This document shows positions 1 through 5,092 of a DNA stretch of 5,092 nucleotides, one piece after another. Position numbers and translations under genes: made by a program. Position 1 is the stretch's first letter. Each line of letters begins with the position of its first letter. The notes below the pieces were generated by a model that was not told the DNA's origin, searched no databases, and was given only the letters and a program-made list of their open reading frames with translations. The DNA is taken from IMG/VR virus record IMGVR_UViG_3300018477_000019, positions 1 to 5,092 of that record; one strand, written 5' to 3'. Source of the stretch: a virus (Duplodnaviria > Heunggongvirae > Uroviricota > Caudoviricetes).

Positions 1-50
1 CATACGAGATACATCGGTGACTGGAGTTCAGACGTGTGCTCTTCCGATCT
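1..50. other. Illumina TruSeq indexed adapter (synthetic, non-biological) at contig terminus
   Basis: Positions 1-50 read CATACGAGAT-ACATCG-GTGACTGGAGTTCAGACGTGTGCTCTTCCGATCT, i.e. the 3' part of the TruSeq index adapter (…GGCATACGAGAT[index]GTGACTGGAGTTCAGACGTGTGCTCTTCCGATCT) with a 6-nt index ACATCG (reverse complement CGATGT). Recognised from memory of the adapter sequence; exact contiguous match over the whole fixed part. Confidence 0.93.
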
Positions 51-1026
51 CTTTCAGAACCGTCAGAACGGACCATTCAGCCTCGACACTATCGACCGAG
101 TTCAAAACGCTATCGCAAATCACGTAGTCGTAACGCCCTCGCGTTTTTAAGTCGTCCACCAGCGTATCAATCATTCGGTTTGTTGCAGCCCTATCCAGAG
201 TGTTTCCAGCGCCCTTACGGCGGAAAAGCTCGAGATCATGCAGGTTATATCCCTTTGCCCTGAGCATTCGCGCGTAGTCTCCCTGCCCCGAACCAAAATC
301 AATTCCTCTTGGCGTCTTGGCAATGATCGGGAGGATCAACGACTCATACAGATTTGATTTCAGGCTGCCACCATTACGCAACCGCATAAGCTGCGCATAC
401 GTCTGGATGTATGTTGTTTTCTCCAGATGAGAATACTCAAATACACCATAAGTTTTATTCAGATAACTTTGGTATTTTTCCTTCTCAACATCAGGGATCA
501 CAAACACCGTTAGCGGTGTGCGCGTCATTTTCGCTGCTAATGCATACTGAGCACAGTGAATAACCTCACCAGACTGAGTAGCAACACAACCACCCCACGG
601 ACCATACTTGATAACCAGTTCCGCTATGTTCTTTCGAACATATGCCATTTTCGCGCGCATATTGCCTGAGATCTGGCTTGCCGATACCTGAACAAAACCA
701 TGCTTATCTTCCAGACCGGACACCCTGCAACGCTCATCTCCGCTATCAAAATCCGTTCCGTTATGCAGTTGGTTAAACCGTACTTCGTCGTATACCGTCG
801 TTTCACAGGGCAACACATACACCGCAGCACGCGTTATTCCCAATTTACGTAGCGCCTTCGTCCTTTGGTGTCCCGCCACCAGCAAATCGCCGCGCACTAT
901 CAATGGCTTCACAAGCCCCAGCTCCCTGACGCTTTCCGCCAGCCTCGCAAGATCATCCTCACCGATAAAACGCGGGTTATATTCCGCGCCGCGTAGGTGC
1001 GTTATGTCGTAATTGAGGTGAAGCAT
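28..1026 (-). CDS. ParB/Srx-like N-terminal domain fused to a class I SAM-dependent methyltransferase-like domain; 3' end truncated/chimeric with adapter
   Basis: Minus-strand ORF (track 28..1032). N-terminal ParB-type motif (…LIVRGDLLVAGHQRTKALRKLGI…); C-terminal region has a Rossmann SAM-binding motif I (IDFGSGQGDY) and a downstream YDYVICDSVL segment. No (D/N)PP(Y/F/W) motif in the retained part. Likely start is ATG at 1026-1024, preceded by GGAGG about 8 nt upstream and overlapping the upstream stop (TGATG); an in-frame GTG at 1032 is the alternative. The last ~7 codons and the stop at 28-30 lie inside adapter sequence, so the true C-terminus is unknown. Confidence 0.8.
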   Translation of the reverse strand: MLHLNYDITHLRGAEYNPRFIGEDDLARLAESVRELGLVKPLIVRGDLLVAGHQRTKALRKLGITRAAVYVLPCETTVYDEVRFNQLHNGTDFDSGDERCRVSGLEDKHGFVQVSASQISGNMRAKMAYVRKNIAELVIKYGPWGGCVATQSGEVIHCAQYALAAKMTRTPLTVFVIPDVEKEKYQSYLNKTYGVFEYSHLEKTTYIQTYAQLMRLRNGGSLKSNLYESLILPIIAKTPRGIDFGSGQGDYARMLRAKGYNLHDLELFRRKGAGNTLDRAATNRMIDTLVDDLKTRGRYDYVICDSVLNSVDSVEAEWSVLTVLKEIGRAHV

Positions 1027-1649
1027 CAGCACACCTCCCCAGCCAGCAATGCGGATACAAATCCGATATAGCTGCCATTATCATCAACATAACGAGACAC
1101 CGCGCAGTCAAAACGATCCGCTTCCTCATCCGTTGCCGGGATTTTATGACCTCCAAATGACAGGTACTGAACTTTTACGCCTGATTTGGCCTCATCCTTC
1201 TCAAATGGGATATCCATACCTTCTGTGTCATCGTAGACCGCCACACTCAATAAGTTATCCAGTTCGCGCTGAGTAAAACCAATTGAGTCCAGAGCAAAAT
1301 CATCGGCCGCAAGATCTGCAAGCTCCGCGCTTAACAACTCTTCATCCCAACCAGCATTCAGCGGAATACGGTTGTCGGCCAGACGATATGCCTTCTTCTG
1401 ATTCTCCGTTAGCCCAGCCAGAACAATGCAGGGAACATCATCCATCCCCAACTGAGTGGCCGCAGCAATTCGACCATGACCAGCAATTACAACGTTGTTC
1501 TCGTCTATCAGGATCGGATTAGTCCATCCGTACTCCTGTATGCTGGCAACAATCTGATCTACCTGCTCCACGGAGTGTGTGCGAGCGTTCTTTTCATAAC
1601 CAATCAACACAGAAAGTGGTAAAGAAACCACATTAAGTTGTTTTGTCAT
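1026..1649 (-). CDS. ParB-like nuclease (ParB N-terminal/Srx) domain protein, 207 aa
   Basis: Minus-strand ORF with ATG at 1649-1647 and TGA at 1028-1026. Contains a ParB N-terminal domain signature (…NPILIDENNVVIAGHGRIAAATQLGMDDVPCIVL…) and an acidic C-terminal half. Its stop overlaps the start of the downstream ParB-methyltransferase gene (TGATG), indicating translational coupling. Confidence 0.8.
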   Translation of the reverse strand: MTKQLNVVSLPLSVLIGYEKNARTHSVEQVDQIVASIQEYGWTNPILIDENNVVIAGHGRIAAATQLGMDDVPCIVLAGLTENQKKAYRLADNRIPLNAGWDEELLSAELADLAADDFALDSIGFTQRELDNLLSVAVYDDTEGMDIPFEKDEAKSGVKVQYLSFGGHKIPATDEEADRFDCAVSRYVDDNGSYIGFVSALLAGEVC

Positions 1650-1792
1650 GCCGTTTATCCGCTAAAATCCCCTCGCTTGTGCAAGCAAGTGGGCCTCGGT
1701 TTGTATCCACGGCACCCTGTGGGTATGAATGACTGTCGTCAGGTCGCAACTGACGGCGGTCGCCCACCTTCCAGTAATAAAAAAGCCACCAG

Positions 1793-1822
1793 CATTAACT
1801 CCACAATGAGCTGGAGTTAATG
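1793..1822 (-). repeat. Perfect 11-bp inverted repeat with 8-nt spacer in the intergenic region downstream of the Tfa-like gene; candidate terminator hairpin or operator
   Basis: CATTAACTCCA (1793-1803) / TGGAGTTAATG (1812-1822) are exact reverse complements with spacer caatgagc. On the minus-strand transcript the hairpin is followed about 8 nt later by UUUUUUAUUA. It lies about 60 nt after the Tfa-like stop (1884) and about 145 nt before the ParB start (1649). Confidence 0.35.
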
Positions 1823-1883
1823 AGGCAGCTTTGGTTTGCGCATTATCGCAGCCCCTGATAAGCACAAGAGCTGCTGTAATGCG

Positions 1884-2597
1884 TTACTCTGGTATCAAAC
1901 AGATGTGGCCGTTATTTACCTCAATGCGAGAGTATCTCGGCTTACCATCCACGATTCCGGTAATGACAAGTTCGCCATCAGGCGACCATTCTTCTTTGTC
2001 GTCTTCAAGTACCGCGCCTTCTGGCAGATCAATACAGGCAAAAACAGGACAGCCAGGATGACGTTTATCCTCCATCGCAATCAGCATCGACTCACCGAAC
2101 CACTCTGTAGTAGCACGGCCATCAGCCGCCTGATAGTGAATCAGATACTGGTTTTCGCCATTTGCATACTGAGCACGGGCTTGAACTTCTCCCCATTCGT
2201 CACTGATACGCATTGTTACCAGTTGGGATAATTCAAACTTAAACGGAACAGACTCTGCACCAATAGATATCGGTGAGTTTTCTCGCTGCTCTGGACCTTC
2301 ACGCTTCACAATTTGAACATCTTTGACGAGCCAATCACCTGTGTTATCTACTTTTCGATACTCATCGGTATCAGGTAACTCAATAACACTCATCCCATCC
2401 GGGCAAAGCAACGATACATCTTTCGAAACACTGCGGATAATGCCGTTATTGTCATACATCATCTTTAAAGTGTGAGGCTGAAATTTCTTCTGCTCCTCAT
2501 ACCAATTTCTTCCGTCTTCAGTAAAAAGCGGTAGCACATCTGGATGTTTGCCGCGGGGATCAATAAGCGGCGCACTGATATTTTTTAAATGCATCAT
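1884..2597 (-). CDS. Tail fibre assembly (Tfa/gpG-like) N-terminal domain protein with a divergent, non-canonical C-terminal region (237 aa)
   Basis: Minus-strand ORF with tandem ATG at 2597/2594 and TAA at 1886-1884. The N-terminal ~105 aa (MMHLKNI…EDGRNWYEEQKKFQPHTLKMMYDNNGII…DTDEYRKVDNTGDWLVKDVQIVKR) matches, from memory, the conserved N-terminal region of enterobacterial prophage tail fibre assembly proteins. The C-terminal ~130 aa lacks the usual Tfa C-terminal W..Y..L..RVD-type motif. No tail fibre gene lies upstream. Confidence 0.78.
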   Translation of the reverse strand: MMHLKNISAPLIDPRGKHPDVLPLFTEDGRNWYEEQKKFQPHTLKMMYDNNGIIRSVSKDVSLLCPDGMSVIELPDTDEYRKVDNTGDWLVKDVQIVKREGPEQRENSPISIGAESVPFKFELSQLVTMRISDEWGEVQARAQYANGENQYLIHYQAADGRATTEWFGESMLIAMEDKRHPGCPVFACIDLPEGAVLEDDKEEWSPDGELVITGIVDGKPRYSRIEVNNGHICLIPE

Positions 2598-2613
2598 ATA
2601 AATAACCCTACAT

Positions 2614-2778
2614 CTATCTCATTGACTTGAATGAAACGCACCCTGACCGCAATTGCTCCCGCTTACGCCGAAAAGCTCTCTGCGCCACTAAGATGCGCCA
2701 CAGGACACCAGCAATAACCACCAGCGAGATACAAAAACACACGGCCACAACCATCAGAAAAATGCCAACACCATTCAT
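2614..2778 (-). CDS. Small membrane peptide, 54 aa (one predicted TM helix plus basic C-terminal tail); not in the supplied ORF track
   Basis: Manual translation of the minus strand from ATG 2778-2776 to TAG 2616-2614 gives MNGVGIFLMVVAVCFCISLVVIAGVLWRILVAQRAFRRKREQLRSGCVSFKSMR. The ATG overlaps the TGA of the upstream 68-aa ORF (ATGA), and the stop lies 16 nt before the Tfa-like start. An alternative in-frame ATG at 2790 would add MDSF. Weak Shine-Dalgarno only. Confidence 0.4.
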   Translation of the reverse strand: MNGVGIFLMVVAVCFCISLVVIAGVLWRILVAQRAFRRKREQLRSGCVSFKSMR

Positions 2779-2981
2779 GAAACTATCCATTCTTCAATGA
2801 ATATCTCCAGTAATGTCAAGAGATACGCCGTCCCCAGCGCGGTTCCTACCGATATAGCTAAAACAAACCTCAAAGATAACGAGGTGTCTTTCGCTTTTCT
2901 CCAGACGTAAGCGCCAGCCAGAAATACCAACAAATCTCTTATTGGAAGCGGAAACCAGAACAAATCACTCGGCAAGTCCAC
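2775..2981 (-). CDS. Small hydrophobic protein, 68 aa, two predicted TM segments; GTG start
   Basis: Minus-strand ORF starting at GTG (2981-2979), 2 nt after the TAA of the 151-aa gene, with a purine-rich GGAAGGA about 7 nt upstream; stop TGA at 2777-2775. Product MDLPSDLFWFPLPIRDLLVFLAGAYVWRKAKDTSLSLRFVLAISVGTALGTAYLLTLLEIFIEEWIVS has two hydrophobic stretches and no internal Met. Tight packing with flanking genes supports it, but the non-ATG start lowers confidence. Confidence 0.4.
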   Translation of the reverse strand: MDLPSDLFWFPLPIRDLLVFLAGAYVWRKAKDTSLSLRFVLAISVGTALGTAYLLTLLEIFIEEWIVS

Positions 2982-2983
2982 GG

Positions 2984-3439
2984 TTATATCCTTCCATTCA
3001 TTTTTATCGGATGACCAGATAGCCTTACGCAGTTGAGCTGTAAAGCTCCGGTATCAACTAAATAATCAACTAACATGATTAGAGATTCATATTCAGCCAG
3101 ATAGCTAACCTGACGCATTCGACCGCCGTTGTTCTCCAGAATGTCGGCCACCTTTGCAGCCAACTCGCTTAGACAGGAGAACTTATTCCCATATATCGTT
3201 TTATACTCGCGCTTCTGGCATTCTTCGGCTTGCGGCTGGTTATCGAGAGCTATCAGCGACCGATAACTATCAAGGAAGTCCACAATCTCATTCAGGCACT
3301 CTTTGGCTGCCTCATCGTGACTTTTTCCGTATGCTTCATGGAGGACTTTCATCCTCATCATTGCTCCGTCACACATAATCGAAAGCGCGTAAAGCACATC
3401 ACTAATCGCCATTTCTTTTTTGGTGCTTGTCGAAGGCAT
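2984..3439 (-). CDS. Hypothetical protein, 151 aa, probably cytoplasmic and helical; no recognised family
   Basis: Minus-strand ORF with ATG at 3439-3437 preceded by a strong Shine-Dalgarno (AAAGGAGAAC-ATG); stop TAA at 2986-2984. It sits immediately downstream of an intrinsic terminator, so it opens a transcription unit or is reached by read-through. No motif I could assign. Confidence 0.7.
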   Translation of the reverse strand: MPSTSTKKEMAISDVLYALSIMCDGAMMRMKVLHEAYGKSHDEAAKECLNEIVDFLDSYRSLIALDNQPQAEECQKREYKTIYGNKFSCLSELAAKVADILENNGGRMRQVSYLAEYESLIMLVDYLVDTGALQLNCVRLSGHPIKMNGRI

Positions 3440-3464
3440 CCCATGTTCTCCTTTGTCTGGATGT

Positions 3465-3490
3465 AAAAAAGCCCCGGCAATTGCCGAGGC
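3465..3490 (-). terminator. Rho-independent terminator after the 89/65-aa gene pair
   Basis: Minus-strand RNA GCCUCGGC-AAUU-GCCGGGGC followed by UUUUUU: an 8-bp GC-rich stem (7 Watson-Crick pairs plus one G-U), 4-nt loop and 6-U tract, beginning 24 nt after the TAA (3516-3514) of the 65-aa gene. Confidence 0.65.
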
Positions 3491-3513
3491 TCGTTGTTCG
3501 TTATCGTTACGGT

Positions 3514-3711
3514 TTAATGCTCGCGTCGTCCGGCGACAACTTCGGATTTGTATTTCAGGTCGCCCAGCAAGAATTGCAGTTTAAGCATCTTTGCCGCCGT
3601 GTAGTTCCCTGATTCCACAACCTCTTTCATGAGGTCATAAACGGCCGCTACATCATCAGCCAGGAACTCTTTGCGTTGCTGCTCAGTCGCACGTTTGAAG
3701 GAAATACGCAT
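3514..3711 (-). CDS. Hypothetical small protein, 65 aa (66 aa if started at GTG 3714)
   Basis: Minus-strand ORF with ATG at 3711-3709 overlapping the TGA of the upstream 89-aa gene by 1 nt (TGATG); stop TAA at 3516-3514, followed by the intrinsic terminator. Product MRISFKRATEQQRKEFLADDVAAVYDLMKEVVESGNYTAAKMLKLQFLLGDLKYKSEVVAGRREH looks helical and charged; no family assigned. Confidence 0.62.
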   Translation of the reverse strand: MRISFKRATEQQRKEFLADDVAAVYDLMKEVVESGNYTAAKMLKLQFLLGDLKYKSEVVAGRREH

Positions 3712-3980
3712 CACTCATCATCTCCTGCCGCACATACAACCTCACAAAAAACATCAGCGGAATGTTTCTCCTTGAACGAATGACGCTCAAAACCGCACTC
3801 AATATCAGGCGCAAAAACATCCACCACATACGGTCTTTCAGAATGTTTGTTTTCCCAACGATAAACCGTAGTGACGTTGAAATGTTTTAACGCTTCACGG
3901 AACTCAACGCTGCCAGTCAGGTTTTTTGAGGTCAGGTATTGCAGGAGGTTTTTTACTACTTCACGGTCTTGTACTTTCAT
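3711..3980 (-). CDS. Hypothetical small protein, 89 aa, acidic C-terminus
   Basis: Minus-strand ORF with ATG at 3980-3978 preceded by GGAGA about 8 nt upstream; stop TGA at 3713-3711. Product MKVQDREVVKNLLQYLTSKNLTGSVEFREALKHFNV…CAAGDDE. First gene of a two-gene unit with the 65-aa ORF. Confidence 0.7.
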   Translation of the reverse strand: MKVQDREVVKNLLQYLTSKNLTGSVEFREALKHFNVTTVYRWENKHSERPYVVDVFAPDIECGFERHSFKEKHSADVFCEVVCAAGDDE

Positions 3981-4024
3981 CGGGTTATCTCCGGTTTAAC
4001 CAGGGCGGGTATCGCTCGGTTTCG

Positions 4025-4062
4025 GTTATAACCTTAGGAAATTTTTTCCCACCTGTAAAGCA
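4025..4062 (-). promoter_or_regulatory. Candidate sigma70-type promoter for the 89/65-aa operon
   Basis: On the minus strand, TTTACA (plus 4059-4054), a 17-nt spacer, then TAAGGT (plus 4036-4031), about 50 nt upstream of the ATG at 3980 in a 112-bp AT-rich intergenic region. The -10 is a weak match; a consensus TATAAT also occurs within the palindrome at 4081-4092 without a good -35. Sequence inspection only. Confidence 0.25.
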
Positions 4063-4092
4063 CTTTTTATATAAATCTATAATTATATAATT

Positions 4093-4680
4093 CTATGACA
4101 CTTGCCAGAGAGCATCATGCAACTGGATACCTCCGTTGCACTGGTTGCCCCAGCCATGCCAGCCATCAGGTAAATCACCGCGAGCAAACAGCTCAATACG
4201 AGGAACATCACCTAACAGTCTTACCAGCTTGTCACGAACCACATCAGGCTTCCGTGAATGTTCCAGACGAGGCGATGTAAACGACTGAATGATCCCCGCA
4301 TCAAGGCGAGTCGGCAGTTTGCCTTTTACCGCAAACAAGCAATCTTCACTGTTCGCACGAGTCATATGCCCCATCCCCATCACCAGCTTATCTGGCTGTC
4401 GGCTACCACATTTGTTCCATGTGAAGCCCTTCATGGTCATCAGCCTGAATCCCCATGCTTTCACCACCAGCAACGCTTCTTCTGGCTGAGTCGGAACCCA
4501 CCACATGGCCAACAAACACGATTCAGGATTAGCAAGCTGCCAGACAGGAATACGAGCAATCTCCTCAGCTTTCATCGTTGGATACTTAAAACCAGCTCCA
4601 CGATTCCCATCCTTACACTTGTCTTTGTATTCCCAGGGGGGATCTGCATAAATCAGATTAAACAATGCAATTGCCTCCAT
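4093..4680 (-). CDS. MT-A70-family N6-adenine DNA methyltransferase (phage-type orphan Dam-like methylase), 195 aa
   Basis: Minus-strand ORF with ATG at 4680-4678 (GGAGG about 10 nt upstream) and TAG at 4095-4093. N-terminal catalytic DPPW motif (LIYADPPWEY) and downstream EHSRKP and ELFAR segments typical of MT-A70-type adenine methyltransferases. No adjacent restriction endonuclease gene. Confidence 0.88.
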   Translation of the reverse strand: MEAIALFNLIYADPPWEYKDKCKDGNRGAGFKYPTMKAEEIARIPVWQLANPESCLLAMWWVPTQPEEALLVVKAWGFRLMTMKGFTWNKCGSRQPDKLVMGMGHMTRANSEDCLFAVKGKLPTRLDAGIIQSFTSPRLEHSRKPDVVRDKLVRLLGDVPRIELFARGDLPDGWHGWGNQCNGGIQLHDALWQVS

Positions 4681-4988
4681 GTTAGTTGTGCCTCCGGCGC
4701 TTATCTCCGGCAGTCATAACGCTGGCCAGCTCTACAGCAAACACAACGAAAAGGGCACTAACCAGACTGATTAATGCCCTTGCCTGTTGTGTGCCGGATA
4801 TCGCCAGACAACGCTGTTTTGGTAACACGGCTACAGTTCCGCGCCGCTCCAGCTTTTACCCCTTTGCGGATAACAGGCCCTGCCTGTAACTTAGCCCCAC
4901 GTTCGCCCGAAATGCGCACCAGGCACGCATAAAGATGAGCACGAAGGAAGTAACTCCACCGCGCTTATCTTTATGTGTGAGAGTGAAT

Positions 4989-5064
4989 TGGTGGCCCCTA
5001 CCGGATTTGAACCGATGACCGTGCGATTATGAGTCGCCTGCTCTAACCACTGAGCTAAGGGGCC
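4989..5064 (-). tRNA. tRNA with CAU anticodon; acceptor stem and D-arm resemble tRNA-Ile2 (lysidine, ileX-like) rather than tRNA-Met
   Basis: Reverse complement of 4989-5064 is GGCCCCTTAGCTCAGTGGTTAGAGCAGGCGACTCATAATCGCACGGTCATCGGTTCAAATCCGGTAGGGGCCACCA (76 nt). It folds as a cloverleaf: 7-bp acceptor stem, 4-bp D stem, anticodon loop CTCATAA, T stem ATCGG/CCGGT, T loop TTCAAAT, encoded CCA. The 5' ~43 nt match my memory of enterobacterial ileX; the variable loop and T stem differ with compensatory pairing. Confidence 0.85.
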
Positions 5065-5092
5065 ATATTTGATCTGTTTGTCTGATGTGGCG

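Follow-up and report, generated by a model that had tools for sequence, protein, structure and literature searches.

A terminal TruSeq-type index-2 adapter sequence supplies the stop codon of a truncated ParB-N/methyltransferase gene in a phage-plasmid contig

Introduction

Contamination of assemblies by Illumina adapters has been termed "well documented", with UniVec and FCS-adaptor as the standard means of detecting it (PMC13182109). The adapter-contaminated contig ends that form the class screened by UniVec/VecScreen and NCBI FCS-adaptor carry the adapter in a terminal position, pointing inward and beside unrelated inserts. One such oligonucleotide is the TruSeq Index 02 adapter (GATCGGAAGAGCACACGTCTGAACTCCAGTCAC-CGATGT-ATCTCGTATGCCGTCTTCTGCTTG), for which a reference sequence is printed as [quoted passage not shown] in PMC8362010. 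On the biological side, the closest described protein is WP_001443071.1, encoded by E. coli phage-plasmids of about 48 kb such as p48 and named "ParB N-terminal domain-containing protein" in RefSeq.

In this study, we analyzed a stretch of viral DNA of 5,092 nt, hereafter the window. Its first 50 nt reproduce the TruSeq Index 02 adapter from the T/A overhang through the stem and the index to the tenth nt of P7, and lack the outermost 14 nt of P7. Like the contaminated ends described above, this segment is terminal, points inward and adjoins an insert unrelated to those found beside it elsewhere. Unlike that class as a whole, it shares the reading frame of a truncated gene and provides that gene with a stop codon, so that the resulting protein looks complete. 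We conclude that positions 1-50 are almost certainly an untrimmed Illumina adapter of the TruSeq type, carrying index 2, which became attached to the end of a metagenome contig during assembly. No evidence against this artefact reading was found in our analysis.

Results and discussion

Identity of the terminal 50 nucleotides

The window opens with CATACGAGAT, followed directly by ACATCG, by GTGACTGGAGTTCAGACGTGTGCTCTTCCGATC and by a single T (Table 1). The reverse complement of the TruSeq index-2 (CGATGT) adapter equals the window prefix over 49 nt and, once the overhang T is included, the agreement extends to 50 of 50 nt with 0 mismatches. The matching part corresponds to the last 50 nt of the Illumina TruSeq Index-02 adapter, the window strand being the reverse complement of the oligonucleotide as it is usually listed. 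The original prediction had held that positions 1-50 are an exact TruSeq indexed adapter with the index ACATCG, and this is what the 50/50 match to the PMC8362010 sequence and the shuffling control described below bear out. It had also proposed a comparison with a TruSeq adapter list: when the 12 indexed adapters were compared with the window prefix, index 2 alone matched, and none of the 11 other classic TruSeq indices did.

The match is also unique within the window. A scan in which the index was set to N and up to three mismatches were allowed returned one site only, with 0 mismatches, and none of 200 dinucleotide-preserving shuffles of the window (0/200) matched with the same number of mismatches allowed. 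Moreover, no further adapter pieces were found outside positions 1-50 by searching for 10-mers of the TruSeq universal adapter, P7 and Nextera, or for AGATCGGAAGAGC with at most one mismatch, and the opposite end of the contig (5092) is natural, adapter-free sequence. The adapter thus occupies the extreme end of the 5,092-nt contig, with its 3' T facing the insert. Of its 64 nt, 50 are present. The P7 segment that follows the index, ATCTCGTATGCCGTCTTCTGCTTG, is represented by the first 10 of its 24 nt, which match exactly; the outermost 14 nt (CAAGCAGAAGACGG) would fall beyond window base 1, where the contig stops, and are absent for that reason. Read length or end clipping may possibly account for the retention of 50 of the 64 nt.

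Table 1. Features of the window, with strand and basis of assignment
Feature	Position	Strand	Basis
P7 flow-cell segment, inner 10 nt, CATACGAGAT (reverse complement of ATCTCGTATG)	1-10	+	exact match; adapter of PMC8362010
6-nt sample index ACATCG (reverse complement of CGATGT, TruSeq index 2)	11-16	+	alone among 12 tested indices
Adapter stem, 33 nt (reverse complement of GATCGGAAGAGCACACGTCTGAACTCCAGTCAC)	17-49	+	exact match
T of the adapter 3' T overhang; A-tail ligation junction, last synthetic base	50	+	C in eleven natural copies
Artefactual TGA stop from the adapter stem (…CAC GTC TGA ACT…)	28-30	-	codon reading
Open reading frame with the adapter-encoded end	28-1032	-	ORF list
Seven fake codons, E-I-G-R-A-H-V	31-51	-	divergence after a 325-aa common prefix
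Spurious 75-aa ORF, GTG start inside the adapter, antisense to the real gene	36-263	+	ORF list
Genuine 5' 976 nt of the ParB-N / class-I methyltransferase fusion gene	51-1026	-	100% identity to NZ_CP023368.1
Separate MT-A70 methyltransferase	4093-4680	-	83.4 bits
tRNA, anticodon CAT	4989-5064	-	tRNA-Met per ARAGORN and GenBank phage records; tRNA-Ile per RefSeq/PGAP on plasmids

The name of the oligonucleotide admits a second reading, in which the sequence would derive from the index-2 PCR primer of a TruSeq-compatible kit (CAAGCAGAAGACGGCATACGAGAT-ACATCG-GTGACTGGAGTTCAGACGTGTGCTCTTCCGATCT), whose sequence is identical once the library is finished. A primer of this kind has the same sense as the window strand, and beyond that nothing in the sequence speaks for or against it. 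These sequences are in use by several vendors, and either origin would yield the same finished library molecule. Since TruSeq-compatible index-2 PCR primers yield an identical sequence, the kit cannot be named with certainty. We regard the primer as a possible, though less likely, source, and one with equal consequences for the contig.

Natural relatives and the exact breakpoint

Window positions 1-1700 matched 72 complete E. coli records, with 74 of the 77 matching places lying on plasmids, and among the matches listed the query start was base 51. The best match was plasmid p48 of strain 1428 (NZ_CP023368.1), which is 100% identical to the window over 51-1700 and differs from it at 6 bases over 51-5092. 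Matches to the Yersinia phages vB_YpM_41, 44 and 39 and to the Escherichia phage vB_EcoM-613R2 likewise begin at 51.

Eleven independent copies could be read across the junction. One is a complete plasmid and one a cultured Yersinia phage, and a scan with window 51-89 contributed nine metagenome contigs from other projects. All eleven carry a near-identical natural stretch of 50 nt, TCCACGG…TTTACACAGGC, before base 51, and the adapter was found in none of the eleven (0/11). The natural junction reads …TTTACACAGGC followed directly by CTTTCAGAAC…. The natural upstream sequence shares 17 of 50 bases with window 1-50, a value near the approximately 12-13 of 50 that unrelated sequences would give. 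Bases 48-50 all mismatch the natural sequence, which has C in place of T at 50, and this places the breakpoint exactly between bases 50 and 51. For the same reason, microhomology that would blur the breakpoint was considered and rejected.

The same 50-mer in unrelated viral contigs

An exact scan of IMG/VR located the identical 50-mer at 52 sites on 51 unrelated viral contigs (L002-L052) from seven datasets (3300003691, 3300004460, 3300007351, 3300007352, 3300011126, 3300015155 and 3300021225). The median distance from the 50-mer to the contig end is 24 nt over the 52 sites, and 51 of these sites are terminal, as in the window. At every one of them (52/52) the outward continuation is the rest of P7, CAAGCAGAAGACGG, usually with poly-T next, while the inward flanks amount to 51 distinct, unrelated sequences. 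No contig with the inward flank of the window itself was recovered in the exact 50-mer scan of IMG/VR. This pattern of recurrence is the behaviour of a library oligonucleotide, unlike that of a mobile or conserved biological element. The feature at 1-50 is not real biology, as had been predicted: homology starts at 51, the natural copies differ, and the 50-mer adjoins unrelated sequences. The sharing of the 50-mer by seven datasets suggests a batch of assemblies made from untrimmed reads.

Two of these contigs deserve separate mention. In the 4,557-nt contig L031 (IMGVR_UViG_3300007351_000172), the index-2 adapter, P7 and poly-T are present at both ends, at 1-71 and 4484-4554. The result is an inverted terminal repeat of 71 nt, 100% complementary and wholly synthetic, of a type that could pass for genuine ITRs and hence for a complete genome. 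In contig L045 (IMGVR_UViG_3300004460_001953), poly-T and the full 64-nt adapter occupy positions 5075-5148, with 5,074 nt before them and 105 nt of other DNA after them; this contig is a chimeric join through the adapter.

The join in L045 shows that adapters do become internal in the same kind of data, and it is the ground for asking if the adapter of the window might have entered through a chimeric library molecule or an assembler mis-join instead of simple read-through of a short insert. We consider this improbable. The adapter of the window is strictly terminal, with nothing outward of it, in line with 51 of the 52 IMG/VR sites, and the combination of a 3' T directed toward the insert with the indexed arm is the product of Read-1 read-through.

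Read-1 read-through of a short insert, the route that we infer from the order of the adapter parts, would proceed as follows. A library fragment of an enterobacterial phage-plasmid of about 48 kb would have ended at window base 51, been A-tailed and then been ligated to the adapter T overhang (base 50). With a read length exceeding that of the fragment, Read 1 would have passed through the insert into AGATCGGAAGAGCACACGTCTGAACTCCAGTCAC-CGATGT-ATCTCGTATG…. Read 1 is favoured by the arm that is present: directly after AGATCGGAAGAGC stands ACACGTCTGAAC…, which belongs to the indexed arm. Had Read 2 been the source, the universal arm, GTCGTGTAGGG…, would be expected in its place. Left untrimmed, such a read would form a dead-end path that the assembler took over the true continuation, the true path probably having been lost through low coverage or graph simplification. 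Finally, a gene caller would have accepted the in-frame adapter TGA and returned a "complete" 332-aa protein instead of a partial gene open at the contig end. Within this scheme, direct observation covers the identity of the oligonucleotide, its terminal position, the exact breakpoint and the fact that its 3' T faces the insert.

Damage to the ParB-N/methyltransferase gene

The gene at the contaminated end is the first part of a longer one. Its open reading frame begins slightly upstream of the homologous RefSeq CDS, which starts at the ATG corresponding to window 1026. On the minus strand, the codons across the junction read CTG AAA GAG ATC GGA AGA GCA CAC GTC TGA. The GAG codon spans the 50/51 junction and is composed of the genuine base 51 and the adapter bases 50 and 49, and the TGA at 30-28 is entirely adapter. 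The real protein, WP_001443071.1, has 457 aa. The product of the window, with 332 aa, is identical to its residues 1-325 and then ends in EIGRAHV and the stop, where the true residue 326 is G, followed by LCKAGGS…. The C-terminal 132 residues (326-457), encoded by 398 nt, are therefore missing, and in plasmid p48 the real stop lies 398 nt past the junction.

These results agree with three further points of the original prediction, namely that the contig end is artificial, that the adapter supplies the stop at 28-30 and that the protein carries a fake C-terminal tail. The gene continues for 398 nt in complete plasmids, the stop falls wholly within the adapter, and the 325 shared residues give way to a tail that is absent from the 457-aa protein. 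The loss of 132 residues under a gene that is called complete is nevertheless the bigger annotation damage when set against the 7-residue tail. In addition, the exact 332-aa adapter-terminated product has already entered a public protein collection, where it derives from JGI/IMG and from one contig only. That contig measures exactly 5,092 nt, and the window is therefore the entire contig. On this same ground we rejected the possibility that the window had been cut out of a longer contig in which the adapter is internal.

The truncation falls within the catalytic domain as predicted by Pfam. In the full protein, Methyltransf_23 (PF13489) covers residues 232-398 and profile positions 17-160 of 164, with 32.7 bits. 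In the window product it is restricted to residues 231-316 and profile positions 16-99, with 27.3 bits for a cut-off of 27. Judged from these profile alignments, the predicted methyltransferase domain is cut at about 60% and about 40% of it is lost. At the other end of the protein, ParB_N (PF02195) aligns with residues 7-68 (E = 1.8e-5) at 25.1 bits, slightly below its gathering score of 26.3 bits. Compared with WP_001443071.1 of the phage-plasmids, the window thus has the same residues 1-325 and the same order of flanking genes, and differs in lacking residues 326-457 and in ending with seven adapter-encoded residues. The window product has neither full-length identity to the WP_001443071.1 family nor a complete Methyltransf_23 domain. 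The window gene is a truncated fragment of a member of this family, not a complete member.

A 450-aa variant of the ParB-methyltransferase is also on record. A natural truncated allele of 332 aa was rejected as an explanation, in view of the 457 aa encoded by the complete copies examined and of a tail encoded by adapter bases. More generally, the notion that the 50 nt are genuine phage-plasmid sequence, such as an insertion or recombination junction, draws on nothing but their presence in an assembled contig and on the recorded 332-aa product, and its probability is negligible against an exact match to a synthetic oligonucleotide down to a catalogue index, which no shuffle reproduced, and against a 50-mer that no natural copy examined possesses but that 51 unrelated contigs share, always with the rest of P7 outward.

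Consequences for public data

The importance of this finding is one of data hygiene only: positions 1-50 should be masked, and the gene at 51-1026 flagged as 3'-partial. Users of the 332-aa record would misjudge both the length of the ParB-methyltransferase and the integrity of its domains. In IMG/VR, at least 51 contigs are contaminated with this index-2 adapter. Whether untrimmed index-2 adapters are systematic in a batch of JGI/IMG assemblies is, in our estimate, an evenly balanced question. If they are, falsely "complete" proteins of the type of the 332-aa product would have been seeded in public resources, and synthetic inverted terminal repeats such as the 71-nt pair of L031 would be readable by completeness tools as genuine ITRs.

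Phage-plasmid context of the remaining contig

The rest of the contig is unremarkable: it is part of a widespread enterobacterial phage-plasmid of about 48 kb, for which complete, near-identical records already exist. The window contains two tandem ParB-N proteins, an MT-A70 methyltransferase (83.4 bits) and one tRNA. In p48, the region is flanked by genes for a terminase large subunit, a third ParB/Srx protein and a glycoside hydrolase family 108 protein. The phage-plasmid encodes three consecutive proteins with ParB/Srx N-terminal domains (window 51-1649, minus strand, and L001 1719-2309), one of which is fused to a class-I methyltransferase, and the MT-A70 methyltransferase is separate from them.

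The 90%-identity cluster of the 457-aa protein also holds three 207-aa members, P0009, P0012 and P0015. These correspond to the adjacent upstream ParB gene (window 1026-1649, minus strand), with 202-204 of 207 residues identical to the translation of window 1029-1649. The cluster mixes two neighbouring genes of unrelated lengths; a gene call that fused them across their ATGA overlap may have formed the bridge.

The tRNA with anticodon CAT has been annotated in two ways (Table 1). Its chromosomal homologues, of about 86-90% identity, are present in virtually all of 5,426 E. coli genomes and are annotated as tRNA-Ile. Because both the plasmid copies and these homologues carry the tRNA-Ile annotation, the phage-plasmid probably carries a tRNA-Ile2 of the lysidine type here, for which the designation Met is probably incorrect.

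Annotation also differs at window 1884-2597 on the minus strand. In the window this region is one continuous ORF of 237 aa, and Yersinia phage vB_YpM_41 likewise has one CDS of 714 nt there. On identical p48 DNA, PGAP instead calls two features, a "hypothetical protein" and a pseudogene named "incomplete tail fiber assembly protein", which looks like an annotation inconsistency and not like a real disruption. Finally, over the 5,042 nt compared with p48, four of the six differences fall within 14 nt (3770, 3771, 3777 and 3783), inside an 89-aa ORF at 3711-3980 on the minus strand. The interval 3770-3783 is a small patch of local divergence amid near-identical DNA.
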